IMG/VR virus record: IMGVR_UViG_3300038427_000078
Length of the DNA: 64,000 bases
Direction: 5' to 3' (one strand)
DNA from: a virus
The notes beneath the pieces are model-generated. The model was not told the DNA's origin, made no database searches, and was given only the letters and a program-made list of their open reading frames with translations. Numbering within the stretch: the first letter of the stretch is position 1; every line of letters begins with the position of its first letter. The position numbers were made by a program, and so were the translations under genes. Below are positions 43,538-56,245 of the stretch, in pieces.

Positions 43538-44533
43538 ATGGAGTATCAGAAGTATCTAAGGTCTGCTCACTGGCATGATCTTCAACGAGTGTTTTGGGAG
43601 AGGCATGAGCATCGCTGCGTAGTGTGTGGCGCAGAAGAGTCGCTGCATATCCATCACCGAACCTACGAGCATCTTGGGCATGAGGAGTGGGAGGATCTTA
43701 TCCCGTTGTGCGAAGATTGTCACACGCTAGTTCATCGGCTAGTGGACAATGGGCAAGCCTCTTTGTCTGACGCTCATCTCAAGTTGAATCCTTCGCTAGA
43801 GTGTCCTTCTCCGGAAGGACGAATCACTATTCCTCAGCGCCTTGGGCATGGACGCAAACATTTTGATGTTGGATCTGTGCCGTTGTACGTTGAGGGACAG
43901 GAGTACACCCCGGAGCAGTTGGACATGATGGCGACCTATTGGCTATGGACTCGAAGGGAGAACGGCCAGGGTGACATTCTGTTGAGTGCGAGTCAATGGA
44001 AGGGGCGCTACGAGCGTGAGATATACACAGCGGATGGGAAACCACCGGACCCCGCTAATACGACCGACCGCTTTGGCAACTACATCGATGGCATGTACTG
44101 GCGTACATGTCCTGGGGGTCGAAAGTGGGTGACCGAGGGAGTTCGTCGTACGATGGGATGTGGATTCTACTCGCATGCTATCGCAGAGGGCAAGAAGATT
44201 GTTCCTCCGAGAGAAGTCGAGGAGCAGGTCCAATGCCCCGGTCCTGGCTGTGATCGACCGGCTAAGACCGGAGGTCTTTGTCCCGCCCACTACCAGCAGC
44301 AGAGGCAGGGCCGACCTTTGGCCCCCATCCGTGTGCATGACGGACTCGGGTACGACCGCTCTCGAAAAAGGAAGAGCCTCAAGGAAAAAGAGAGGCGGCG
44401 CGTCGAGAAAGAGGAGCGCCAAGAACGTCCGAAGAAACCCAGGAAGAACGGGCGTCTAGTGGTCGTCGGGCGGGATGAGGATGGTCAGCCGATCACAATC
44501 CGAGAAGATTCGTCAGAGCATGCTACAATTTAG
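43538..44533 (+). CDS. Chimeric HNH endonuclease
   Basis: 'Y..YLRS.HW...CVVCG...HIHHRTY..LG.E...DLIPLCEDCH' plus extra domains. Confidence 0.8.
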   Translation: MEYQKYLRSAHWHDLQRVFWERHEHRCVVCGAEESLHIHHRTYEHLGHEEWEDLIPLCEDCHTLVHRLVDNGQASLSDAHLKLNPSLECPSPEGRITIPQRLGHGRKHFDVGSVPLYVEGQEYTPEQLDMMATYWLWTRRENGQGDILLSASQWKGRYEREIYTADGKPPDPANTTDRFGNYIDGMYWRTCPGGRKWVTEGVRRTMGCGFYSHAIAEGKKIVPPREVEEQVQCPGPGCDRPAKTGGLCPAHYQQQRQGRPLAPIRVHDGLGYDRSRKRKSLKEKERRRVEKEERQERPKKPRKNGRLVVVGRDEDGQPITIREDSSEHATI

Positions 44534-44737: not shown

Positions 44738-44812
44738 CTCCTCGTAGCTCAGTCAGGACAGAGCAGCCGCCTTCTAAGCGGTCGGTCGAGGGTTCGAATC
44801 CTTTCGGGGGGA
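44738..44812 (+). tRNA. tRNA-Arg(UCU)
   Basis: Cloverleaf; anticodon arm GCCGC-CTTCTAA-GCGGT. Confidence 0.9.
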
Positions 44813-44813
44813 C

Positions 44814-44842
44814 TTGACAGACGCAGATTCGTCTGCTACTCT
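44814..44842 (+). promoter_or_regulatory. SigA-type promoter
   Basis: TTGACA-17-TACTCT with TG extension. Confidence 0.75.
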
Positions 44843-45043
44843 GTCGAAACGGTAAGGTCCACCGTACATATCCAACGGACCGGCTGGTCAGCCGTAACCA
44901 TACGGCGAGTAGCTTGACGGACAGCGCCCAGGTGGGTGCGAGTCCAGCGCGAATAGCGGTTGAGCGATGTTGACACTTCTGCCTCTCAGAGTAAGCAGCG
45001 GGTACAGAGTTCAGGGTTCGCGCCCGGAGCCAGCCAAATCTTC

Positions 45044-45124
45044 GCCAAGGTATGCAAGTGGACAAAGCACGCTGTCTGTAAAACAGTTCTCTCGGGTTCG
45101 TAGGTTCGACTCCTACCCTTGGCA
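45044..45124 (+). tRNA. tRNA-Tyr(GUA)
   Basis: GCTGT-CTGTAAA-ACAGT; variable arm. Confidence 0.9.
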
Positions 45125-45191
45125 TAAAATCGAGTCCCCTCGCGGAAAATTTTTGCGGGGAATGCTCAGGCGAGATTAGCATAATCTTCAC

Positions 45192-45214
45192 GCGCTGGTG
45201 ATGGAACGGTAGAC
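45192..45214 (+). pseudogene. 5' fragment of tRNA-Leu
   Basis: GCGCTGG-TG-ATGGAACGGTAGAC; acceptor strand pairs with TCAGCGC at 45872-45878. Confidence 0.7.
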
Positions 45215-45262
45215 TTGCTTTGTTTTCCATTCGCATCTGTGCTATAAGTAATAGAAGCATAC

Positions 45263-45347
45263 GTCCGCATGCTGGAACTCGGTAGACGGGCACGGTTGAG
45301 AGCCGTGTGGCCGAAAGGTCGTGTGGGTTCGACTCCCACTGTGGACA
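45263..45347 (+). tRNA. tRNA-Leu(GAG)
   Basis: CACGG-TTGAGAG-CCGTG; long variable arm. Confidence 0.9.
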
Positions 45348-45349
45348 TC

Positions 45350-45832
45350 ATGGCATTTATCCATCGCTACACATTGGAGATGTTGGAAGAGGCAGCGGAG
45401 CACAGCACTTCGGTCGCTGGTGTCTGTCGTTATCTCAACATCAACAACCCTGGCGGTAGTTCGCAGACGAACATCCGCAATCGTCTTCGTGACTTCGGCA
45501 TCGATACCTCACACTTCTTGGGTAAAGCTGCTCGCAAAGGAACACAAGCGAGCAATCGAAAGACGGCGGCAGAGATACTTGTACGCCTTCCTTCTGGTGC
45601 CTACCGACCAGAAGCAAAGAAACTTCGACGGGCCTTGATCGAACAGGGACGAGAGTATGTCTGTGAGGGTTGCGGCAACAAAGCGTGGTGGAAAGAAGGC
45701 CCATTGACACTTGAAGTAGATCACATCGACGGCGATTGGCACAACAACGAAGAGGACAACCTTCGTTTCTTGTGTCCTAATTGTCATAGCGTTTACACGT
45801 TGCCCGGTGTACCATGTGGTACGGCGGACTAG
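45350..45832 (+). CDS. HNH endonuclease
   Basis: 'CEGCG...LEVDHIDGDWHNNEEDNLRFLCPNCHS'. Confidence 0.9.
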   Translation: MAFIHRYTLEMLEEAAEHSTSVAGVCRYLNINNPGGSSQTNIRNRLRDFGIDTSHFLGKAARKGTQASNRKTAAEILVRLPSGAYRPEAKKLRRALIEQGREYVCEGCGNKAWWKEGPLTLEVDHIDGDWHNNEEDNLRFLCPNCHSVYTLPGVPCGTAD

Positions 45833-45879
45833 GACGTGGTGCCCTTCGGGGCGTGTGGGTTCGAATCCCACTCAGCGCA
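45830..45879 (+). pseudogene. 3' half of tRNA-Leu(UAG)
   Basis: TAG-GA-CGTGG, variable arm GCCC-TTCG-GGGC, T arm GTGGG-TTCGAAT-CCCAC, TCAGCGC-A. Confidence 0.8.
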
Positions 45880-46152
45880 TAGGGCCGGTGGTCAGGCGAC
45901 GGGGTAAGCTCCTGTCGAATGCAGCCGAGTAGGTCGGGGATCCAGGCGCGTCTGGTGAAAGACCCGTATCCCTCTTGAGGGGTGCCCATCTCAAGCACTT
46001 GGTTGCGGAGCGGTCAAGTGGGTAGAGGGCGGAAGCCAGCCTTGAAAGGTTGAGCCGAAAGCTCTAGCTCCAATGTTTCAACTCCCGTGTAGTGGTGGAA
46101 GTCCACGTCGCGCAAGCGATTGTTACTGATGTGTGTCATGCACGGGAGCCAT

Positions 46153-46228
46153 GCCGCTGTGAAGGGAATTTGGCATACCTCTCACGCTTAGAACGTGAGG
46201 CTTGTGGGTTCGAGTCCCACTGGCGGCA
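46153..46228 (+). tRNA. tRNA-Leu(UAG), short variable arm
   Basis: TCACG-CTTAGAA-CGTGA. Confidence 0.85.
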
Positions 46229-46246
46229 CTCAGTAGTGAAGTACCT

Positions 46247-46318
46247 GCCTCCGTATGGTTAGTGGTAGACCCTCCGACTTTTAATCGGGAAGCTGGGGTT
46301 CGATTCCCCACGGGGGTA
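46247..46318 (+). tRNA. tRNA-Lys(UUU)
   Basis: TCCGA-CTTTTAA-TCGGG. Confidence 0.85.
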
Positions 46319-46469
46319 CTTTTGTGGTGATCGGCTGGGCTTGATCGGCCCGCTGTCCGATGGAAGGTGGTCGTGTGTCCACTCTTCGACCCGCGTCAAG
46401 TAGGGCCACAACGAAGGGCAAGATACCTCCGTACCGCAGCGCGCCGGGACGATAGGTAACACACAACAT

Positions 46470-46542
46470 GGGCCTGTAGCTCAAATGGGAGAGCGCCTGC
46501 CTTGCAAGCAGGAGGTTGAGGGTTCGATTCCCTCTAGGTCCA
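46470..46542 (+). tRNA. tRNA-Ala(UGC)
   Basis: CCTGC-CTTGCAA-GCAGG; G3:U70. Confidence 0.92.
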
Positions 46543-46711
46543 CTGACTGTGGTGATCAGTCAAGCGGTAGCGGCCCCGGTAAAGGGTGCAGCCCGCACGA
46601 ACTCACCACCGCCTCTGCGTTCACGGGCAGAGCAAATGGAAGTGTCGTGAGCTTCCCGTACAATTCTCTCTCCCCGATTTCAGTGCGTGGGATGGAGGGC
46701 GGTCGAATCAA

Positions 46712-46785
46712 CAGGGAGTAGCGCAGTCTGGTAGCGCACTTGGTTTGGAACCAAGGGGTCGCGGGTTCGAATCCCGCCTTCCTGA
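46712..46785 (+). tRNA. tRNA-Pro(UGG)
   Basis: CTTGG-TTTGGAA-CCAAG. Confidence 0.92.
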
Positions 46786-46826
46786 TAGCAGAGGGACGGC
46801 TGCTTCGTAAACCGTCCCGCACTTAC

Positions 46827-46922
46827 GCGCCTGTAGCTCAGTGGTCAACGGTTCTCTTCGGGGAGCCAAAGAGTTGCCGCCTTTCAAGCGGTAGGTCCGG
46901 GGTTCGATTCCCCGTAGGCGCA
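46827..46922 (+). tRNA. tRNA-Glu(UUC) with extra hairpin in D-loop
   Basis: GCCGC-CTTTCAA-GCGGT; 96 nt. Confidence 0.8.
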
Positions 46923-46979
46923 TAACTCGTACCGCACCCCGGATTAGGGAGTACGAAGGCGGTGCAACGCCGCCACCAG

Positions 46980-47053
46980 CAGGGTATAGCGCAGTCTGGT
47001 AGCGCGCTCCCCTCGGACGGGAGAGGTCGTAGGTTCGAATCCTATTACCCTGA
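46980..47053 (+). tRNA. tRNA-Pro(CGG)
   Basis: CTCCC-CTCGGAC-GGGAG. Confidence 0.9.
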
Positions 47054-47135
47054 TAGCGGCAGGCCATGGCCTGTCTCGAAGATCCTCGGTTGAACCGTGA
47101 AGCCATAGTTACCACGGGCCGGTACGGATCGAGTT

Positions 47136-47208
47136 GCCGGTCTAGCTCTAATGGTAGAGCGCTTCCGTGGTAAGGAAGAGGTTCCGAGTTCGAATCTCGG
47201 GATCGGCT
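47136..47208 (+). tRNA. tRNA-Thr(GGU)
   Basis: CTTCC-GTGGTAA-GGAAG. Confidence 0.9.
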
Positions 47209-47470
47209 TAGCGGGGTAGACTCCATGCGCAGGGGTCGATGTCGAGGGAGTCATGACCCAAGGCACGCGGGTACCGACAGGCAAAGCGCCTGCTCGGTCC
47301 GTGCCGCACACTCATACCGTGCGCCGGGAAACCGCTAGACTGGCGGGTGTTACCGGATAAGGAGAGGCTAGTCACCGATCCGAAAAGGGATTGCTCGCAC
47401 GGTTTTCTAGATTGATCGGTCGGCCTCCGGTAGAGGAGTAGCGGACGGGTCGCCCCTCCACGGAGGGCTT

Positions 47471-47542
47471 GCCAGCAAAGCGGAAGTGGTGCCGCACCCG
47501 TTTCGTAAGCGGGGGAATCGGGTTCAATTCCCGATGCTGGCT
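47471..47542 (+). tRNA. tRNA-Thr(CGU)
   Basis: CCCGT-TTCGTAA-GCGGG. Confidence 0.85.
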
Positions 47543-47693
47543 TTGAGGCCGTGACCTCCGGGTAAGAAGCGCGGGGAGCGTCAGTCTTAGGTTGTCCAGG
47601 GTCTAAATTTGCGCCTGGCTGAGCAGCGGAGACTACATAACCGGCTCGCCTCACTTTCGTACTTTTCTTTCGGGTACGACAAGGTAATGTGTA

Positions 47694-48101
47694 ATGGTAT
47701 GTGCTACCTGTAAAGAAGAGAAGGACTTGGACGAGTTCCATGCTGGTGCTCGCGTGTGTAAAGGCTGCAAGAAGGATGCCGATGCTCGCTCGTTTCAGAA
47801 GCATCGGGAGGCTCGTCTAGAAAAGCGCCGACAGGATCGCCTCGCAGCACGCGAATGGTTTGAGTCCTTGAAGGCAGGAAAGAAGTGTGCCGACTGTGAT
47901 CTGGATCATCCTCCGTGGAGGATGGATTGGGATCACCTTCCAGGCACAGAAAAGCTCTTTGAGATAGCCGATGTCAGCCACATGGCAACGGGAGAGAAGG
48001 GCAAGCGGAAGATACTGGACGAGATTGCCAAGTGCGAGCTTGTCTGTGCCAACTGTCATCGAGACAGAACGCACGACCGCCGACGGGGAGTGGCCCTGTA
48101 A
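47694..48101 (+). CDS. HNH endonuclease
   Basis: 'CADC...MDWDH...KCELVCANCHRDRT'. Confidence 0.9.
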   Translation: MVCATCKEEKDLDEFHAGARVCKGCKKDADARSFQKHREARLEKRRQDRLAAREWFESLKAGKKCADCDLDHPPWRMDWDHLPGTEKLFEIADVSHMATGEKGKRKILDEIAKCELVCANCHRDRTHDRRRGVAL

Positions 48102-48126
48102 CTCGGTTCGACTCCGAGTGTTGGCT
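48102..48126 (+). pseudogene. 3' tRNA fragment (Thr-like)
   Basis: CTCGG-TTCGACT-CCGAG-TGTTGGC-T. Confidence 0.7.
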
Positions 48127-48171
48127 TCCATGGCAGACGAGGAGGCAAGCCCTCTCTTGACTCTGCCGCCA

Positions 48172-48244
48172 GGGGGATTGGTGTAAACGGCAATCATGAT
48201 CGGCTCCAACCCGATTGATCAGGGTTCGAATCCTTGATCCCCCG
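48172..48244 (+). tRNA. tRNA-Trp(CCA)
   Basis: ATCGG-CTCCAAC-CCGAT. Confidence 0.88.
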
Positions 48245-48342
48245 CTGTAGCAGACGTGCTACCCGGCCAGGGGATCTACCTGGTGCAGGCCAATGCTGCC
48301 AGCCCACGCCAGTCGAAACGCTGTCCTGTGGCTGGCCTACCT

Positions 48343-48379
48343 GGTGTCTTAGCTCAGATGGTTAGAGCGCTGCCCTGTC
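48343..48379 (+). pseudogene. 5' half of tRNA-Asp(GUC)
   Basis: GGTGTCT-TA-GCTC-AGATGGTTA-GAGC-G-CTGCC-CT-GTC, no T arm follows. Confidence 0.8.
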
Positions 48380-48429
48380 TAGTAGACCACTGGCCTTCAA
48401 GGGCGGTGGTATCGGCTAGGTAATAGCTG

Positions 48430-48846
48430 ATGGCAACTACCAAGGACAAGGGCGACCTCGCTGAGCTACGCATCGCATCAGACTTGATGCGGCAAGGATA
48501 CAAGGTAGCTATTCCCTTCGGTGACAATTGGGACTTCGACCTGATCCTGTACCGCGATGGGTTCGAGAGGGTCCAGGTCAAGTACGCTCAGTCAGACGGT
48601 GAGAAGGTCGAGGTCAAGGCGGTAAGCTACTCGACCAACAAAGGTCTGACCATCTCAGCGAAACAGTACACCGCTGCTGAGATTGACTGGCTTGCGGTGT
48701 ACGATGTGACCACCGACGAATGCTTCTACGTGCCAGCTAGCGAGCTTGGCGACGGGATGAGGATGGTGACGCTCAGGTATAAGCCTGCGCGTAACAACCA
48801 GACCAAGGGCATCCGGTGGACGAAGGACTATGGGTCCGTAGCGTAG
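48430..48846 (+). CDS. PD-(D/E)xK homing endonuclease (I-Ssp6803I-like family)
   Basis: 'KGDLAE...GYKVAIPFGDN.DFDLI...RVQVK...Y...EID..AVY'. Confidence 0.85.
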   Translation: MATTKDKGDLAELRIASDLMRQGYKVAIPFGDNWDFDLILYRDGFERVQVKYAQSDGEKVEVKAVSYSTNKGLTISAKQYTAAEIDWLAVYDVTTDECFYVPASELGDGMRMVTLRYKPARNNQTKGIRWTKDYGSVA

Positions 48847-48905
48847 TGGTCTAACGCGCCTCCCTGTCAAGGAGGAGAACGGGGGTTCGAATCCCCTCGG
48901 TCCCG
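48832..48905 (+). tRNA. tRNA-Asp(GUC)
   Basis: CCTCC-CTGTCAA-GGAGG; overlaps the endonuclease stop codon. Confidence 0.9.
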
Positions 48906-48927
48906 CTCAACAACGAAGCGGAGAATC

Positions 48928-49074
48928 ATGAAGCTCAGTAAGCTCAGTAAGCTAAGTCGTACATCCGAATTGCTCCCGTATCTTGAATCCGTTGAGCATT
49001 ACGCCAACGCTGCCGTATACCACGGCACCTTCGAGGGCGAACAGTTCACGTTGACCTTTACCTTCGGCCCTTGA
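48928..49074 (+). CDS. Small protein (48 aa) with N-terminal KLS tandem repeat
   Basis: GGAG RBS; (AAGCTCAGT)x2 + AAGCTAAGT. Confidence 0.45.
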   Translation: MKLSKLSKLSRTSELLPYLESVEHYANAAVYHGTFEGEQFTLTFTFGP

Positions 49075-49118
49075 CTCGTCGCTTGACTTCTAGTCGTGGA
49101 CCGTGTAGACTACGGTCC

Positions 49119-49586
49119 ATGAACCTACTAAAGACACTTCCTGTCGTGCTGCTCGTAGCCCTTGCTGGATGCGGAGCAGTTACCAAAGCACCTGCCAAAG
49201 CACCTGCCCCGCACCCTAGTCTCCCCAAGGTGGTCAAGGTCACGGCGCAACCGACCACGACGACACCGGAACCCAGGCCCAGGCCCAAGCCTAGACCTGC
49301 GGTGGTAGTTCCTGTGCCTACTCCTACGCCTACATACCCGACATGCGATGGCGGACCCGTTGAATGCGGGAAGGCATCGGCAGCACCGACACGGGAAGAA
49401 AGTCTGCAACAGCACTACCGCGAAACCGGAGGCTGCGGTGGGGAAGGAGAGGCTGAATGTCCCGCCCACGGAGAAGGCAGCGGAGAAAATAGCGTCAACA
49501 GCACGGGTGAATCGCGTGCCTGTGCAGAAGAACGTAGTGAATACACAAGTGGCGAGAGGTCTAGTCTCCGCGTTGGCTGTCGATAA
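49119..49586 (+). CDS. Pro-rich lipoprotein
   Basis: Lipobox 'VVLLVALAGC'; TTGACT...TAGACT promoter, leaderless. Confidence 0.7.
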   Translation: MNLLKTLPVVLLVALAGCGAVTKAPAKAPAPHPSLPKVVKVTAQPTTTTPEPRPRPKPRPAVVVPVPTPTPTYPTCDGGPVECGKASAAPTREESLQQHYRETGGCGGEGEAECPAHGEGSGENSVNSTGESRACAEERSEYTSGERSSLRVGCR

Positions 49587-49626
49587 GTCAAGGCGGAGGT
49601 CGCGGGTTCGAGTCCCGTCGTTGTCG
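49587..49626 (+). pseudogene. 3' half of tRNA-Asp(GUC)
   Basis: GTC-AA-GGCGG-AGGTC-GCGGG-TTCGAGT-CCCGT-CGTTGTC-G. Confidence 0.8.
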
Positions 49627-49639
49627 CTCGCAGTACAAC

Positions 49640-49711
49640 GCGCTGGTAGCTCATTGGCAGAGCAATCGGTTTACACCCGATGTGTATGGGGTTCGATTCC
49701 CTGGTGGCGCA
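49640..49711 (+). tRNA. tRNA-Val(UAC)
   Basis: ATCGG-TTTACAC-CCGAT; weak acceptor stem. Confidence 0.8.
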
Positions 49712-49758
49712 TAGATGTCAAGTAGCTCTGTAGGCGCAGGGGGGTGCGACATCTTTGA

Positions 49759-49831
49759 GGGCGATTAGCTCAGTTGGGAGAGCGCCGTCGCGACATGGCG
49801 GAAGTCACTGGTTCGAGTCCAGTATTGCCCA
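49759..49831 (+). tRNA. tRNA-Val(GAC)
   Basis: CCGTC-GCGACAT-GGCGG (C33). Confidence 0.85.
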
Positions 49832-50020
49832 CTCTCCTGTCACCTAATTGGTGGCAGGGAATGCAAACCCACGACCAGCGTAAGAAAGGATGGTGATCCA
49901 GAAATCTACCTTGTAGACAGATGGTCGCCGTCCACAGTTGGTCGGCACTAAGTCGTTGGGGGAGGGTGAGGGCCGCTGGCTCTTAGCCCTCCCTCCGAGG
50001 TTCTTCGGAGCCTCACCCAT

Positions 50021-50417
50021 GGGCCTTTCCCGGTAATCGATTGGGTAGGTTCGGCAGTATGTCATGCAGCGGTCGTCACACCTACCTGACAAAAGCCATA
50101 ACTGGCAACGCAACAGACACGCTCGCAATCCCCGCATCTCTCTTCGAGGTTCGGGCTAGCGACGTACTCGCTGTAGCCTAAGAAGCTACAAGCCGGGACC
50201 AGCCGAGTATCCTGGGAACAGAAACCTCGGAGGGCAGTGAGCGCCATGCCCTTGACGTGCAGAGTACCGTTGTAGTTACACCGCAAGGTGTTGGTAGCAC
50301 CCCGCGCGTTCCCGGACGTATAACCGGGTGGTGGAGGCGGGCCATGCCTGTCCCAAAGCTGCTAGAAGTGACGCCTGTACGAGACTCAAGACGGCAGTTC
50401 GACTCTGCCAAGGTCCA
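50021..50417 (+). ncRNA. ssrA: tmRNA
   Basis: Acceptor GGGCCTT/AAGGTCC-A with G3:U70; T arm GGCAG-TTCGACT-CTGCC; ATAACT then tag ORF 50104-50181 GNATDTLAIPASLFEVRASDVLAVA*. Confidence 0.92.
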
Positions 50418-50451
50418 CTAAAACAAGGTCCATCCGTGCTAGAATAGATGG

Positions 50452-50889
50452 ATGGGCAGAGAGCAAAGACGAGCAAAGCAATTGGGTATGCCGCATGGCA
50501 CAGCCATGCACCGCTTGCGTAAACGAGTGATGTTTTCACTAGCTCAGGAGTTGCACTTGGATCAGTGCATCGTGTGTAAGAGGATGATCGAAGATGCTGA
50601 CGACCTTAGCATCGAGCACATCCAGCCGTGGGAGGGCCGAGACACGTCCCTGTTTTGGGACATCACTAACATCGCTTTCTCTCATCGCTGGTGCAACCAA
50701 CCTCATACGCGACCGGGCAAGCCTCCGGTTCATGACCTCAAGCCCGACATGTGGTGGTGCTCCCACTGCGAACAAGAACTTCCGCTTGATCGATTCGGCC
50801 TCAAGACAGTGACAAGTGGAGCTAAACGACCACGAAACTACTGCAACAAATGCCGTACCGAACGTAAAGCAATGGGCCTCTCGGCCTAG
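50452..50889 (+). CDS. HNH endonuclease
   Basis: 'CIVC...SIEHIQPW...NIAFSHRWCN' plus C-terminal Zn finger. Confidence 0.85.
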   Translation: MGREQRRAKQLGMPHGTAMHRLRKRVMFSLAQELHLDQCIVCKRMIEDADDLSIEHIQPWEGRDTSLFWDITNIAFSHRWCNQPHTRPGKPPVHDLKPDMWWCSHCEQELPLDRFGLKTVTSGAKRPRNYCNKCRTERKAMGLSA

Positions 50890-51056
50890 TCCACTTGACA
50901 AGCCGGAGAAGACGTGCTAAGCTCCCGGCATGGAACAAGACAAAAACGGAAACCTGATCTGCAACGTCTGTGGACAGGATTGGGCAAGCCAACACACCAT
51001 CGGGGCAACTGCCTCCAACCTCCCAGGAAGCCAAGTCAACCAAAGGAAGGCAAGTG

Positions 51057-51359
51057 ATGGGCTACTACATCGAGACACCCCTCCCGCTCGCGAAGGCACT
51101 TCAACTCGAAGAGCTTCACGGTGCGGAGCCGTACTCGGGTACGTTCGAGGACGTACCGGAGGGCAAGGTCGTAGTCGCAGTGGTACAGAACGGTCTGTTC
51201 GACGCCGCTGGCATCTGCTACGACGAGAACGAGTTCAAGGCATTCACCGCTGACCCAAGCGACACCAGGCCGAAAGACCTGTTGACGCTGGACAAGGACA
51301 CCGCCCTACGGCTGTGCCCGCACGCAGCGGAGGTACTTGGAGAGGACGTGGCTACCTGA
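51057..51359 (+). CDS. Hypothetical protein
   Basis: AAGGAAGG RBS; 'VVQNGLFDAAGICYD..EF..F'. Confidence 0.6.
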   Translation: MGYYIETPLPLAKALQLEELHGAEPYSGTFEDVPEGKVVVAVVQNGLFDAAGICYDENEFKAFTADPSDTRPKDLLTLDKDTALRLCPHAAEVLGEDVAT

Positions 51360-51565
51360 TGCCCGTCCTTTTCTTCATCATCGCAGGCATCATCCTGATC
51401 GCCAACTCGGGCTGGTTCCACGGAGCAGACATCGTTGGCATCGTCCTGCTCGTCTTTGGCGGGCTTGGACTTGTCCTCTGGCTCGTCGCTGCGAAATTCG
51501 CACGGAGCATCATCAAAGAGGTCAAAGGACCAGGGACACCCCGGCATCCCCGGAGGTTCCGCTAA
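51359..51565 (+). CDS. Small membrane protein
   Basis: Two hydrophobic segments, basic tail. Confidence 0.6.
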   Translation: MPVLFFIIAGIILIANSGWFHGADIVGIVLLVFGGLGLVLWLVAAKFARSIIKEVKGPGTPRHPRRFR

Positions 51566-51572
51566 GTTGTTC

Positions 51573-51645
51573 GCCCTTGTAGCTCAGAGGATAGAGCATC
51601 GGTTTCCTAAACCGTGTGTCGCGGGTTCGATTCCCTCCGGTGCCA
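51573..51645 (+). tRNA. tRNA-Arg(CCU), chimeric/possibly pseudo
   Basis: TCGGT-TTCCTAA-ACCGT; 3' acceptor strand does not pair. Confidence 0.6.
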
Positions 51646-51661
51646 TGGTATACTGTTGGGT

Positions 51662-52003
51662 ATGAGTGATCAAGACCTAACAGAGCAGCAAGTAGTGGCT
51701 GCGGAGGCCGGTGTCGGAGACAGCATACAGGCCATCGCGGACCGCGCAGTCAAGGCCGTCGAGGTACTGGACTTGAGCGAGGGCGATGTTCTCGTAGTCA
51801 AGCTCGGCATCGATGACATGGGTGACGGACTCCCACCGTGGATTCCGGGACCAGCGGAGCTAGAGCAGGTGTCAGATGCCTTGACCGCGACAGTGCCAGA
51901 GGGCGTACGGGTGCTAGTTCACCACCTGGGAATCAACTTCCAGATCGTACGCGGCCTCGACACCAGTAACCCGGTCGTAGTCGAATCGCTGCCAACAGAG
52001 TAA
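51662..52003 (+). CDS. Hypothetical protein
   Basis: TGGTATACT -10 then ATG. Confidence 0.6.
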   Translation: MSDQDLTEQQVVAAEAGVGDSIQAIADRAVKAVEVLDLSEGDVLVVKLGIDDMGDGLPPWIPGPAELEQVSDALTATVPEGVRVLVHHLGINFQIVRGLDTSNPVVVESLPTE

Positions 52004-52006
52004 CAC

Positions 52007-52081
52007 GCGGGAATAGCTCAGCCAGGTTAGAGCACTTCTCTGATAAGGAAGGGGTCAGAGGTTCAAATCCTCTTTTCCGCA
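52007..52081 (+). tRNA. tRNA-Ile(GAU)
   Basis: CTTCT-CTGATAA-GGAAG. Confidence 0.9.
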
Positions 52082-52166
52082 TCGCAGGAAAATCGGTCCT
52101 GAAAAATTAGGGTCGGCGCTCAGAAAAATTTTGCGCCAACTTCTCAGGCGAGATTAGCCTAATTAC

Positions 52167-52241
52167 GCCCAAGTGACGGGAATTGGCATACCTGGCAAGC
52201 TCAAACCTTGTCGTTTGTGGGTTCGACTCCCACTTTGGGCA
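52167..52241 (+). tRNA. tRNA-Leu(CAA), short variable arm
   Basis: GCAAG-CTCAAAC-CTTGT. Confidence 0.85.
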
Positions 52242-52273
52242 CTTTTTGTCGAACCTTCTGACACGTAATATAC

Positions 52274-52606
52274 GTGGCATACAAGGATCCTCAGAAGCAG
52301 AAAGAAGCACAGCATCGGTCATATCTGCGTAACAAAGAGATAATCCTCAGGCGCAGTTCTGATCGCATCAAAGAGCTTCGACGCAAAGTGCGAGAGTACA
52401 AGGAGGAGCGTGGTTGTAGCGCGTGCGGGTACAACAAATACGGTGGGGCTATCGATGCTCATCACCCAAACGGCAAGGATAACCAAGAACAGTGCATTGC
52501 CCGTTTGTGCAAACGGGCCTTTCCGTGGGAGACAATCCTTGCGGAGCTTGAGAAGTGCATTCTTCTCTGTTCCAACTGTCATCGCGAGCACCATCGCGGT
52601 GAGTAG
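52274..52606 (+). CDS. HNH endonuclease
   Basis: 'GCSACG...IDAHH...ELEKCILLCSNCHREHH'. Confidence 0.9.
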   Translation: MAYKDPQKQKEAQHRSYLRNKEIILRRSSDRIKELRRKVREYKEERGCSACGYNKYGGAIDAHHPNGKDNQEQCIARLCKRAFPWETILAELEKCILLCSNCHREHHRGE

Positions 52607-52784
52607 CATAACGCGCTATACTGGAAATATGGGACCAGACAAATGTGGCGCAGAAGTCGGACTTTTGGCAAGATGCCAAAGACCGGCGAATCACGACGGA
52701 GAGCACTCAGGGCCGATTTTCGTCCCTCAGTGGATTACCTATTTGGGCGAGGGTGACGAGATTCCTCGCAGTCAGTACCAATCG

Positions 52785-52856
52785 TGCGGAGTGGAGCAAC
52801 GGTAGCTCGCAAGGCCCATAACCTTGAGGTAGGAAGTTCGACTCTTCCCTCCGCTA
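52785..52856 (+). tRNA. tRNA-Met(CAU), initiator-like
   Basis: CAAGG-CCCATAA-CCTTG; 1:72 mismatch. Confidence 0.85.
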
Positions 52857-52868
52857 TAGCAGTACAAT

Positions 52869-52940
52869 TCCGGGTTCGTCTAATCGGCAGGATGTCTGGT
52901 TCTGAGCCAGATGGTCAGGGTTCGAATCCTTGACCCGGAG
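52869..52940 (+). tRNA. tRNA-Gln(CUG)
   Basis: TCTGG-TTCTGAG-CCAGA. Confidence 0.9.
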
Positions 52941-53002
52941 CTTTGGCAGTAGAAGGCGAACAGCGCTTAGAGCGGGTTCGTGGGATCCCGCGCTGTCAAC
53001 AT

Positions 53003-53073
53003 TGGGGGTTCGTTCAACGGCAGGACAGCGGGCCTTGAACCCGCGAATCGGGGTTCGAATCCCTGACCCCCAG
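53003..53073 (+). tRNA. tRNA-Gln(UUG)
   Basis: GCGGG-CCTTGAA-CCCGC (C33). Confidence 0.88.
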
Positions 53074-53155
53074 CTAGCAAGGCAAGGAGCCGGTAGGCGT
53101 GTGCTACCGGACCAGAACGAGGCGTCACTGCACGCCTACCTTGCCGCAATCTTTC

Positions 53156-53239
53156 GCCTCTCTGGTTGGAATGGTAGACACAGCGGGCCTAAACCCCGCC
53201 GATCTTCGGATCGTCCGAGTTCGACTCTCGGGAGAGGCA
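53156..53239 (+). tRNA. tRNA-Leu(UAA)
   Basis: GCGGG-CCTAAAC-CCCGC (C33); long variable arm. Confidence 0.85.
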
Positions 53240-53320
53240 TCGCGTCGGAAGCTCAAGTGCGAGCGCCGCCCATTTGGGGGCGGAGGTCGAGGGCGATTAG
53301 CTCCCCTCTCGGCGCAACAT

Positions 53321-53394
53321 GGTGGTCGTCATCTAATGGACTAGGATTCGAGGTTGTGAACCTCGCCATGCGGGTTCGATTCCCGTCGATCACC
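53321..53394 (+). tRNA. tRNA-His(GUG) with G-1
   Basis: CGAGG-TTGTGAA-CCTCG; G-1:C73. Confidence 0.9.
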
Positions 53395-53406
53395 CTGGCA
53401 GCACAA

Positions 53407-53481
53407 GCGCCACTAGCTCAGTCTGGTTAGAGCAACTGTCTTATCAACAGCGTGTCCGGGGTTCAAATCCTCGGTGGCGCA
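53407..53481 (+). tRNA. tRNA-Ile(UAU)
   Basis: ACTGT-CTTATCA-ACAGC. Confidence 0.75.
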
Positions 53482-53487
53482 CTTCAT

Positions 53488-53561
53488 GGCCCGTGGGTCT
53501 TATGGCAAGGATTCCGCGTTCTCAGCGCGTGAGATGATGGGTTCGAATCCCATACGGGCTA
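53488..53561 (+). tRNA. tRNA-Glu(CUC)
   Basis: CCGCG-TTCTCAG-CGCGT. Confidence 0.85.
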
Positions 53562-53636
53562 CTCTGTAGGTACCATTCGAATGGCTCTGCCTGCGGAACG
53601 CTTGACTTCATCGCACCCGTGCGATATGATGTCGCT

Positions 53637-54290
53637 ATGTCGAGAGCAAGAGACTGGACCCACCCAATCACCGGCGAGCTACACTGGTTCGACGTACACG
53701 GCATGGCTGGGGTCCGGGAACTCGAAGTTCTCGCAGACGCCGAAGACATCGACTTGGACGACCTGTTCGACGCGAACCTCTCTTCTAAGGAGGTTCTGTT
53801 CCGGCTCAACAAGCTCAGTGAGCTAATCCCGGAGGCGGGCCTCAACAAGCTCAAGAAACGTCAGACACAGGGCGAGCCTGAGACTTGCCGCATCTGCCCG
53901 CTACTCGGTCGGGAGTGCGAAGGTCGAATGACCAAACATCACTTCGTGCCGCGTTGGATCATGTTGGAACTGGCAGACTACGAGGTCTATGCACCGCGTA
54001 GGCTCTGCACAGTCCCGGCGTGCGCCGGGAGCCACCGTTGGCTCCACATGCGGACCGAGGAGGGATCGAAATCCATCGCTCCTTACCTCGACAAGAATGA
54101 GAAGGCACTAGCGCACCATCTCATCGGGACACTCCGTCAGGAGCGCCCCAGGATCTACGCCCTCCTCGCGGGCGGGGACAAGAACAGCTACGAGTGGCAA
54201 CTTGTTCAGGATTGGCGGCGAGGACTGTTTGATGTCAGGGGGGAAGGGAAAGATCCCTTCCCTCGCTGGCAGCTACGAAACTCTCTGTAG
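53637..54290 (+). CDS. HNH-like protein
   Basis: 'CRIC...TKHHFVPR...TVPAC...HRWLH'; TTGACT...TATGAT promoter. Confidence 0.65.
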   Translation: MSRARDWTHPITGELHWFDVHGMAGVRELEVLADAEDIDLDDLFDANLSSKEVLFRLNKLSELIPEAGLNKLKKRQTQGEPETCRICPLLGRECEGRMTKHHFVPRWIMLELADYEVYAPRRLCTVPACAGSHRWLHMRTEEGSKSIAPYLDKNEKALAHHLIGTLRQERPRIYALLAGGDKNSYEWQLVQDWRRGLFDVRGEGKDPFPRWQLRNSL

Positions 54291-54353
54291 CTCAGTGGAT
54301 AGAGCGTCCGGTTGCGATCCGGGAGGTCGGCGGTTCGAGTCCGTCCAGGGAGG
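54281..54353 (+). tRNA. tRNA-Arg(GCG)
   Basis: TCCGG-TTGCGAT-CCGGG. Confidence 0.85.
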
Positions 54354-54381
54354 TACGTTAGAACCCTGCTAAGGTGTAGAT

Positions 54382-54561
54382 ATGCCTTACGCAGATAGAG
54401 AGAAACAGGCGGCGTATCAACGCGATTGGTACCGACGCCACAAAGAGCAACATATCAACCGTATTCGTAACGAACGTCGTAAGAGGCGTGAAGTGGTCAA
54501 CGAATACAAGCTCTCAAGAGGGTGTAACCGATCGCGGGTTCGATTCCCGCATAGTGCTTAG
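54382..54561 (+). pseudogene. Truncated HNH gene fused to a tRNA 3' fragment
   Basis: MPYADREKQ...VNEYKLSRGC resembles the 52274 N-terminus, then GCGGG-TTCGATT-CCCGC-ATAGTGC. Confidence 0.7.
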
Positions 54562-54568
54562 ATCAAAC

Positions 54569-55155
54569 TTCGTATCAGGCGGTTGCTGCGCTTGAAAGAC
54601 AGCGTAGAGGAAGTTCGGGGCATGCTGGCAGGGGAAACCTTGTCATCGGCTCAACTACACCGAGTGACACCGGCCCAAAGGAGGTACGCCCTCGTTGGTG
54701 TTCCGGCGCATGCAACTCCAAGTAGAGAACCCTACGGCGAAAGCTATGGGCATATCGGGTTGGAGGCTTAGATGGATGATCGCCACCAGTTACGACTCAG
54801 AGGAGAGACATGAACTACTGTGAAGCGATGGCCTACGTCGCGGGGCTGTTGGAGGGCGAGGGATGCTTCGATTTCGTAGCTCCCGGCCATCCAAGGATCC
54901 GCATGGAGACAACAGATGAAGATGTGGCATACTGGCTTCAACACTTGGTTGAAGGTGGGACAATCACTAATCGTCAGGGCAAACGCAGTAATCACAGCGA
55001 TTCGTTTGTGTGGCAAACGAGCAGGGCTGATGTGGTCAAGAAGGTCTTGACGGCAATCTATCCTTGGACAAGTGCTCGCAGGCGAGTAAAGATTGATGAA
55101 CTCATGTCTGCTCTCTGAGCCGTAGTTGGTACAGAACCCCGGCTATCGATACGAA
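54569..55155 (+). ncRNA. rnpB: RNase P RNA (reduced), with ORF inserted in P19
   Basis: P1 TTCGTATC/GATACGAA; P2 GGCGGTTG/TGATCGCC; P3; CR-I GAGGAAGTTCGGGGC; P5 CATGC/GCATG-CAA; P15 CTCCAA/TTGGAG; TAGATGGATGAT; CR-V ACAGAACCCCGGCTA. Confidence 0.88.
54810..55118 (+). CDS. Single-motif LAGLIDADG homing endonuclease
   Basis: 'AYVAGLLEGEGCF...IRMETTDEDV...GG.I...FVW...LTAIYPW...RR'; AGGAG RBS. Confidence 0.88.
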   Translation: MNYCEAMAYVAGLLEGEGCFDFVAPGHPRIRMETTDEDVAYWLQHLVEGGTITNRQGKRSNHSDSFVWQTSRADVVKKVLTAIYPWTSARRRVKIDELMSAL

Positions 55156-55196
55156 TATGCCCCTCGGCTCTGTTCAGAACGGCTTGGGGGCACCAA

Positions 55197-55270
55197 GCCT
55201 GTGATGCAGAAATGGTGCTGCGCTCGCCTTGTAAGCGAGAATAGACTCGGTTCGATTCCGAGCATAGGCT
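55197..55270 (+). tRNA. tRNA-Thr(UGU)
   Basis: CTCGC-CTTGTAA-GCGAG. Confidence 0.88.
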
Positions 55271-55434
55271 CTGACTGCGCTCTTGCAAGCACCGGGAACC
55301 GGCGTGCGGCAGAGCGGCGCGCTGGTCACCCGTGGCTAGTCCTCATTTGCTCAACGCACCCCGGATTAGGGATTGGGCAGGCTAGTCTAGTGTGAGTACC
55401 CACTGATCGCGATGAGCGTGAGGGGAAATCCAAT

Positions 55435-55505
55435 GCGGATGTGGCGTAATGGTAACGTATTTGCCTTCCAAGCAAAGGTTGCGGGTTCGACTCCCGTCTT
55501 CCGCT
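55435..55505 (+). tRNA. tRNA-Gly(UCC)
   Basis: TTTGC-CTTCCAA-GCAAA. Confidence 0.9.
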
Positions 55506-55571
55506 TCAACCCACGACACAAAGGAGGTACCCCATGCGGTTAGGCACTGTCTAATCGAAAGGAGGTACTAA

Positions 55572-55742
55572 GTGAACGGCAACCTCGCAGCCAAGGCTGC
55601 GAAGCTCATGCAGAAGAACGGGAACCGCGACAAAGGAGGCGGATCCCACAAGTACGGACGCAACCGCAACAAGTGCGCCCGCTACCGCGCCCGCGTGGGG
55701 AAGCCCCGTGGTCCTGGTGTCGATGGAAACAAGAAACACTAG
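55572..55742 (+). CDS. Small basic protein (56 aa)
   Basis: Perfect AAGGAGGT RBS; MNGNLAAKAAKLMQKNGNRDKGGGSHKYGRNRNKCARYRARVGKPRGPGVDGNKKH. Confidence 0.6.
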   Translation: MNGNLAAKAAKLMQKNGNRDKGGGSHKYGRNRNKCARYRARVGKPRGPGVDGNKKH

Positions 55743-55779
55743 AGGGTGGCCGACCGGCCCACTGGAACGGTCGGATTAG

Positions 55780-55850
55780 TGCTGTGTAGCTCAACGGTAG
55801 AGCAACTGGCTCATAACCAGAAGACGGCGGTTCGACCCCGCTCGCAGCGA
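55780..55850 (+). tRNA. tRNA-Met(CAU) (elongator Met or Ile2)
   Basis: ACTGG-CTCATAA-CCAGA. Confidence 0.85.
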
Positions 55851-55900
55851 CTCATAACTCACAGGCTCCTTTCGAGCCATTTCCGGGCGCATAATGCTTG

Positions 55901-56245
55901 ATGGCATACAAGAACAAGGTCGATCAAGCAGCCTCTTCTCGTCGTCATTACCTTCGTAACCAGAAGGCGATGAAGGAGAGGGCTGAACTCAAGAACCGCG
56001 AACGTCATGCAGAATACGCGGAGAAGATCAAGGTTGCGAAGGCTAGACCTTGCGCCGATTGCAACATCGAATACCCTCACTACGTCATGGACTTCGATCA
56101 TGTGCGTGGCAAGAAGGTCGGGAACGTATCGACCATGGCTCATGCCTTGCGACCTTGGAAGCTGATCGAACAAGAGATTGCGAAGTGCGATGTCGTCTGT
56201 TCTAATTGTCATCGAGAGCGTACGTATGTTCGACTCTCCGCATAG
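55901..56245 (+). CDS. HNH endonuclease
   Basis: 'PCADC..YPHYVMDFDHVRG.K...EIAKCDVVCSNCHRERT'. Confidence 0.9.
   Translation: MAYKNKVDQAASSRRHYLRNQKAMKERAELKNRERHAEYAEKIKVAKARPCADCNIEYPHYVMDFDHVRGKKVGNVSTMAHALRPWKLIEQEIAKCDVVCSNCHRERTYVRLSA

Follow-up and report, generated by a model that had tools for sequence, protein, structure and literature searches.

A likely phage-encoded, minimised RNase P RNA gene with a LAGLIDADG endonuclease gene in the P19 position

A type-A-like RNase P RNA gene of 587 nt is located at 54569–55155 (+) of the 64,000-nt stretch of DNA analysed here (the window), inside an array of tRNA and tmRNA genes. We consider it likely that the locus is a real RNase P RNA gene of the phage, with a role in phage tRNA maturation, and that its insert is a LAGLIDADG gene in P19. 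Once the insert at 54786–55129 is removed, the core has 243 nt, close to the roughly 250 nt given in a first-pass annotation of the same DNA. That annotation had taken the locus for a phage-borne, minimised RNase P RNA, which agrees with the intact catalytic-domain layout, the stub that replaces the specificity domain (S-domain), the lack of P18, and the location in a tRNA array. The window is phage DNA, with genes for a polymerase of the Pol III alpha type, a DnaB helicase, a ribonucleotide reductase (RNR), and a large terminase (TerL), the last having ~31% identity to its counterparts in cluster C mycobacteriophages and Rhodococcus phage E3. The source is an uncultured peat phage of ~170 kb. 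The exact endonuclease protein of the window is also found on a contig of 172,635 bp, and DNA runs from 24 peat and wetland studies contain the locus, whereas no RNA run is listed as containing it. ARAGORN assigns 28 tRNA genes and one tmRNA gene to 44.7–55.9 kb on the same (+) strand, in keeping with the adjacent array of ~29 tRNAs claimed earlier.

The elements of the RNA are listed in Table 1. Every helix of this layout is present in the window copy, and so are the conserved junction sequences. P1 has a different sequence in every family member with the helix kept, and it covaries in orthologues, as do the P2-homologous columns, hairpin A, and stem C of the S-domain remnant; P3 has double changes at six of its seven pairs. 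The region from J5/15 to P15 (54713–54765) is supported by the nhmmer alignment and agrees with the RF00010 consensus GCAA-ggcc-AAAUAG ... CGGGUa-ggcc. J5/15 and the P15/P16 internal loop, whose GGU binds the tRNA 3′ CCA, set type A apart from type B. The junction before the P2 3′ strand, UAGAUGGAU, is of the AGAUGAAUG type that is expected of J18/2. CR-I, the CR-V/P4 pseudoknot, the P1–P3 framework, J5/15 with the GGU loop, and J18/2 place the RNA with type A. As a separate observation, none of the 28 tRNA genes (window 44738–55851) encodes a 3′ CCA and the RNase P RNA still has the CCA-binding GGU, so the retained GGU is without a partner on the primary transcripts, a point that counts against the functional reading.

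Table 1. Elements of the RNase P RNA gene and of its insert in the window. MFE, present in the minimum free energy fold; SD, Shine-Dalgarno sequence.
Element	Position	Strand	Remarks
P1 5′ strand	54569–54576	+	pairs with 55148–55155; 8/8 Watson-Crick
P2 5′ strand	54578–54584	+	pairs with 54778–54784; 7 pairs including 2 G-U
P3 hairpin	54586–54607	+	7-bp stem 54586–92/54601–07, 8-nt loop; MFE of core and full RNA
CR-I GAGGAAGTTCGGGGC	54607–54621	+	J3/4 GAGGAA and P4 5′ strand 54612–54620
P4	54612–54620/55137–55144	+	8 pairs: 3 bp, bulged U54615, 5 bp
P5 5′ strand	54621–54625	+	pairs with 54708–54712; MFE; matches RF00010 P5 as aligned in orthologue L002
Specificity-domain remnant	54626–54707	+	82 nt, three hairpins; MFE
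S-domain hairpin A	54626–54645	+	GAAA loop
S-domain hairpin B	54646–54663	+	
S-domain hairpin C, irregular	54664–54704	+	
J5/15 CAA	54713–54715	+	matches RF00010 consensus
P15	54716–54719 (CUCC)/54762–54765 (GGAG)	+	encloses P16-like arm with GAAA loop
P15/P16 internal loop	54757–54761 (3′ side)	+	AAGUAG; 3′ side GGGUU, with GGU motif
GCU, then at once J18/2 UAGAUGGAU	54766–54777 (J18/2, 54769–54777)	+	P18 absent
P2 3′ strand	54778–54784	+	
P19-position stem, 5′ arm	54785–54813	+	with SD GAGGAG 54800–05 and start codon 54810
LAGLIDADG homing endonuclease ORF	54810–55118	+	102 aa, single-domain
P19-position stem, 3′ arm	55102–55130	+	overlaps the last codons and stop codon of the ORF
CR-V ACAGAACCCCGGCTA	55131–55145	+	J2/4 ACAGAA and P4 3′ strand 55137–55144; second nhmmer match
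P1 3′ strand	55148–55155	+	

We then compared P4 with the canonical form. The RF00010 consensus is GAGGAAAGUCCGGgC at CR-I and ACAGAACCCGGCUUA at CR-V. The first-pass annotation had read both window motifs correctly (GAGGAAGTTCGGGGC and ACAGAACCCCGGCTA) and had rightly described P4 as kept paired with a bulged U. It had also called P4 register-shifted, a view that we reject because both motifs have the same lengths as the canonical ones and are ungapped against RF00010, as aligned in orthologue L002. The geometry is the canonical one of 3 bp, U, and 5 bp, and intermediates occur in relatives. In order, the window P4 consists of A-U, G-C, U-G, the bulged U, C-G, G-C, G-C, G-C, and G-C, and three pairs are swapped with respect to the canonical P4 (A-U to G-C, G-C to U-G, and C-G to G-C). 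Relatives of the same group (L094, L095, L105, and L106) have canonical P4 strands. Intermediate forms are those of L096, with U-A at the second pair, and of L002, with A-U at the last (distal) pair. RNAalifold recovers P4 unprompted with the second U as the bulge, and 4 of the 8 pairs covary among relatives. The window's P4 variant is also present in a full-size type A RNA (L083, 255.4 bits) on a complete 300-kb phage contig. Among 185,579 species represented by one genome each, the common J18/2 combined with the variant CR-V has a single match, on a 3.65-kb MAG contig. This tRNA-array contig, from a Pseudomonadota MAG bin, has a mini RNase P RNA of 62.7 bits directly next to a tRNA (L114:1230–1567, −); it probably comes from a phage and was binned with bacterial DNA by mistake. 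Judging from these sequences, the P4 variant looks phage-specific, since the sole cellular-genome match is itself a tRNA array with a mini RNase P RNA; its rarity in cellular genomes, taken from a scan that had no canonical-pattern control, is no more than indicative.

The RNA is minimised at two places. The first is P18, whose hairpin with GNRA loop is absent from the window, where 0 nt separate GCU from J18/2. The RF00010 consensus at this position is GCU, P18, and then CuAGAugAAUG, and relatives L002, L096, and L106 have the P18 hairpin. The second is the S-domain. Within the 82-nt stub, the type A motifs of CR-II (GUAAGGGUGAAA and GGUAAGAG) and CR-III (AAACCCCAC) are found no better than in shuffles, and a specificity domain of P7–P14 with CR-II/CR-III, the T-loop modules for the tRNA elbow, is not recognisable. 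These results bear out the first-pass annotation, which gave the S-domain ~80 nt at 54626–54707 and could discern neither CR-II/CR-III nor P18. In orthologue L002, 140 S-domain model positions of RF00010 are unaligned. The window copy is the most eroded one in its phage group, with the smallest core and the most diverged S-stub. It lacks P18 together with the neighbouring hairpin, and its S-stub lacks GGGAG and UUGAACC, both of which are invariant in the orthologues.

Rfam gave no RNase P family match at the gathering threshold in the window, and none at E ≤ 10 in 54350–55200 or in the 5′ piece 54565–54786. It is silent on the window because the 344-nt insert between P2 and P4 splits the gene, and on the 5′ piece because that piece is truncated. 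Nor does the RNA match type T (RF02357), the all-family Rfam 15 scan of the window having no match to the RNase P clan. Relatives were gathered via TerL and via the CR-I 15-mer, and the best model for the orthologues is RF00010. In the window's phage group, each of the four complete genomes (160–170 kb; terminal repeats in one of them) carries a single copy, at 38.6–56.9 bits, and the copy of a further partial contig scores 63.4 bits. Hence the orthologues, at 38.6–63.4 bits, do not reach the RF00010 gathering threshold of 100 bits. Alignment to covariance models, the check put forward in the first-pass annotation, has a divided outcome: there is no RNase P match in the window, and the uninterrupted group orthologues align with RF00010 end to end at sub-threshold scores (E 1e-11 to 1e-20). 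The model fails on the two group members with large inserts, namely the window and L008. The L008 insert is a different one, of ~190 nt (4760–4972, +), in the S-domain stub of the orthologous RNase P RNA (L008:4648–5124), and carries a 70-codon ORF of unknown family.

CR-I and CR-V occur in order and 173–415 nt apart in 19 IMG/VR contigs, and a P1 helix of differing sequence flanks them in each of the 16 non-redundant copies examined. Hence the locus is not a chance arrangement. Uninterrupted copies measure 256–380 nt from P1 to P1. RF00010 also matches end to end all nine tested other contigs with the window's P4 variant (19–141 bits). The homology of the window copy was assessed by nhmmer and by explicit pair counts. 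An nhmmer profile of four uninterrupted orthologues matches 54572–54767 of the window with an E value of 3.6e-15 (profile positions 2–210), and a second match at 55127–55152 (profile positions 277–302) is collinear with the first across the insert. In six orthologues, 94.8% of cells are paired and 32 of 65 pairs have changes on both sides, demonstrating the conserved homologues with covariation on which the earlier reading depended. None of 500 shuffles reaches these values, and slid partners pair at 31–40%. A caveat is that one of the six orthologues served as the template for the structure, in which P4 was written as a pseudoknot. The counts cover six close orthologues, the diverse-family MAFFT alignments being too poor in the S-domain, and leave out the P18 columns, which MAFFT broke in the six-orthologue alignment. 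Across the family loci examined, the RNase P RNA gene is always within tRNA arrays. When the locus and three family members were compared by blastn with 50,697 phage records, the sole match was one in the S-domain, to the Microcystis phage MaAM05. RNase P RNA of this kind was found neither in more distant relatives (TerL 38–48% identity) nor in five cultured actinophages, which indicates that the RNA is dispensable for phages of this kind.

The insert lies between P2 and P4, and its ORF accounts for 309 of the 344 nt. The arms of its stem form the longest inverted repeat of the window: 17 bp with a single mismatch are followed by a small internal loop and then by a further 7 bp, among which is the start codon. 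The stem also takes in the Shine-Dalgarno sequence, and it forms in the MFE structure of the full 587-nt RNA. We inspected whether this big stem could be P18 and rejected the assignment, because the stem lies after the P2 3′ strand. It emerges at the P19 position, between that strand and ACAGAA. In relatives, P19 varies between complete absence and a short GNRA hairpin, and relatives supply empty insertion sites. P19 is described as variable in length, stacking on P2, and lost many times (PMC12974513). Both borders of the insert are bridged at an identity of at least 99% by DNA contigs of three other peat or wetland studies. The DNA contigs of four peat and wetland runs contain no insert-skipping joint and no endonuclease-free allele of the window phage.

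The encoded protein has the LAGLIDADG motif with its conserved acidic residue in a single alpha-beta domain, and the motif, AGLLEGEGCF, is invariant in seven homologues of 100–117 aa drawn from the protein database. Taken alone, the window protein matches PF14528 with an E value of 1.5e-3 and 19.2 bits, below the 22.5-bit Pfam cut-off, and phrog_5046 with an E value of 6e-13. Among the homologues, PF14528 (LAGLIDADG_3) is found in six of seven and PF00961 (LAGLIDADG_1) in five of seven, and the homologue profile matches one domain of I-HjeMI (9e-9) and of I-AniI (2e-8) in the PDB. Relatives of the endonuclease were also sought in IMG/VR by sequence pattern, and none was confirmed. The related metagenome contig L105 has a 60%-identical endonuclease gene, which is free-standing and lies 16 nt behind an RNase P RNA that is intact and 259 nt long. 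The window and L105 share the tRNA order Arg-gcg ... RNase P RNA ... Thr-tgt, Gly-tcc, Met-cat. As the L105 homologue is outside the intact RNA in the same tRNA synteny, the sequence comparison indicates that the endonuclease gene is a mobile, free-standing gene tied to the RNase P RNA gene, and that it settled inside the latter in the window. A GC-rich hairpin, AUAUGCCC ... GGGCACCA, is conserved in both (window 55158–55196 and L105:1806–1840). It directly precedes tRNA-Thr(tgt) in both, and comes after the RNase P RNA in the window and after the endonuclease gene in L105.

We propose that the RNA descends from bacterial type A and that P18 and almost the entire specificity domain have gone. 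The layout of the catalytic domain is kept whole, comprising P1–P5, the P4 core with the bulged U, J5/15, the P15 loop with GGU, J18/2, and J2/4. The RNA may be transcribed together with the tRNA array and would assemble with a protein through its conserved C-domain. Host RnpA is the candidate partner because the related phages encode none (RnpA, PF00825, was not found in 5 related phage records). The complex would remove the 5′ leaders of the pre-tRNAs and the pre-tmRNA of the phage. For recognition it would rely on the acceptor stem and 3′ end and not on the T/D-loop elbow. In this it would be like archaeal type T RNAs (PMC3579882) and like the E. coli C-domain, which is catalytic by itself (PMC5839562). 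It is plausible that the RNA serves 5′ maturation of the phage tRNAs and tolerates odd ones. The endonuclease gene would have landed in the peripheral, length-variable P19, where the long stem would close the insert and bring P2 and P4 back together. The same stem would hide the Shine-Dalgarno sequence and AUG of the endonuclease, and translation would then be limited to unfolded transcripts. An insert between P2 and P4 could impair folding. Because the modelled stem rejoins P2 and P4 and hides the Shine-Dalgarno sequence and AUG, the interrupted ribozyme can probably still fold.

A bolder form of this proposal, which we offer tentatively, sees the transcript as a ribozyme-mRNA chimera. A working RNase P RNA would at the same time be the endonuclease messenger, with translation gated by the folding of the P19 arm, and the endonuclease would target endonuclease-free RNase P RNA genes of co-infecting relatives. 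The RNA would represent an undescribed phage RNase P RNA lineage that uses host RnpA and leaves the tRNA elbow unread. Were this true, a selfish gene would have its safe harbour in the outer helix of a trans-acting ribozyme.

Three other explanations were weighed against a functional RNase P RNA gene. In one of them, which we hold to be unlikely, the locus is a decaying relic, that is, a once-working RNA inactivated by the endonuclease insertion and the loss of P18 and the S-domain, in a phage that uses host RNase P. Such decay would accord with the lack of an Rfam match in the window, with the core and S-stub being the smallest and the most diverged of the group, respectively, and with the absence of the gene from more distant relatives. 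However, the catalytic-domain helices and junction motifs are all intact, the insert is exactly in the one freely length-varying position and is closed by a 17+7-bp stem, and contigs from several peat studies carry the same sequence with no differences. It is also improbable that the RNA is a decoy or regulator, binding host RnpA or pre-tRNAs and thereby diverting or shutting off host tRNA maturation with no need to cleave. A sponge would have no use for the bulged U, the adenosines of J3/4 and J2/4, J5/15, and the L15 GGU, all of which are kept, and would not explain why P4 is maintained through compensatory changes and why the gene is always within tRNA arrays, although the lack of a detected phage RnpA and an S-domain loss that would weaken normal substrate recognition are in line with this role. 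Finally, that the insert is an intron spliced from the RNase P RNA can be dismissed as very improbable, since LAGLIDADG genes do typically travel in group I introns (as the PDB matches I-AniI and I-HjeMI recall) but group I and II models have no match at E ≤ 10, the ORF fills the insert and leaves no space for an intron core, and the L105 homologue is free-standing outside the RNA.

A probable RNase P RNA gene can be set beside several known systems. With type A (RF00010; E. coli M1 RNA, rnpB), the phage RNA shares the order and pairing of P1, P2, P3, the P4 pseudoknot with its bulged U, P5, and P15/P16, as well as the junctions GAGGAA, CAA, AAGUAG/GGGUU, UAGAUGGAU, and ACAGAA. It differs in having an 82-nt stub without CR-II/CR-III instead of ~165 S-domain consensus positions, no P18, three P4 swaps, and orthologues that score 38–63 bits against a threshold of 100. 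In addition, it is phage-borne, has a protein-coding insert in P19, and has no cognate RnpA gene that we could find. The archaeal type T RNA of Thermoproteaceae/Pyrobaculum (PMC3579882) is likewise natural and has shed most of the specificity domain, to ~200 nt (Lai et al. 2010, as cited in PMC4919922). Type T, however, belongs to an archaeal lineage with archaeal proteins, whereas the junctions of the window RNA are those of bacterial type A and its P15 loop has the GGU. A precedent for the mechanism is an E. coli ribozyme engineered to consist of the C-domain (Eco CP RPR; PMC5839562), which shows that the catalytic domain of type A cleaves without the S-domain. It is an artificial truncation of lower efficiency, whereas the phage RNA is natural and conserved and keeps a small three-hairpin stub.

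Full-size RNAs are also phage-borne. The cultured jumbo Microcystis phage MaAM05 has a type A RNase P RNA of 251.8 bits at MW495066.1:115284–115683 (L109:1501–1900), in a gap left unannotated by the GenBank record, with canonical P4 and no tRNAs nearby. Together with the 255.4-bit RNA of the 300-kb IMG/VR contig L083, which has the window's exact P4 variant, it is above the Rfam threshold with a complete S-domain and P18, whereas the window RNA has neither the score nor these elements. Regarding the insert, LAGLIDADG ORFs are known from the peripheral loops of group I introns, and phage tRNA regions have homing endonucleases that are free-standing. The window ORF shares with the former the single LAGLIDADG domain, the location in a terminal loop of a structured RNA, and the sequestered ribosome-binding site and AUG. 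Its host RNA differs in being a trans-acting ribozyme gene that is not self-splicing, with no sign that the insert is removed. As in the latter case, the window array is littered with HNH endonuclease genes.

To our knowledge, RNase P has been treated as strictly cellular (and organellar), and phages with tRNA arrays have been assumed to borrow the host's. Full-text searches of the accessible literature found no report of a phage-encoded RNase P RNA, and a term search found no mention of one in a 2024 historical review, a 2016 diversity review, a 2026 survey of 635 cellular RNAs, and an unrelated preprint. What is new in the window is that P19 houses an endonuclease gene and that the pairing of P4 has been clarified. 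Given a conserved phage lineage, tRNA 5′ maturation would join the translation functions carried by large phages, and the phage RNAs would amount to natural experiments on the minimal specificity domain of a bacterial-type ribozyme. They would also be a source of compact ribozymes with which tRNAs could be processed in vitro. With 243 nt, the core is smaller than the RNase P RNA of Mycoplasma fermentans, for which Siegel et al. reportedly gave 276 nt in 1996. In the window copy, a protein-coding selfish gene would be housed in a trans-acting ribozyme without an intron, which makes it possible to test how well P19 tolerates large insertions and whether RNA folding controls endonuclease translation.

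The surrounding array has further features. Three HNH endonuclease genes (43538–44533, 45269–45832, and 55898–56245, +) are interspersed in it, making the tRNA array a hotspot of free-standing homing endonucleases. Just upstream of P1, a 59-codon ORF (54382–54561, +) resembles the N-terminal part of nearby phage HNH endonucleases and runs into an orphan tRNA 3′ half, with a T arm (54533–54550) and an acceptor strand; the two look like debris of an older endonuclease/tRNA rearrangement. The phage tmRNA gene (50021–50418, +) is located mid-array and encodes a 25-residue tag with a LAVA end. At 46827–46922 (+), a 96-nt tRNA scores 57.5 bits with Rfam and could not be named by ARAGORN; its anticodon loop, CUUUCAA, contains UUC (Glu), and an extra hairpin of ~23 nt is present within the D-loop. 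With its altered elbow, it is the kind of odd tRNA that an RNase P without the S-domain might tolerate.
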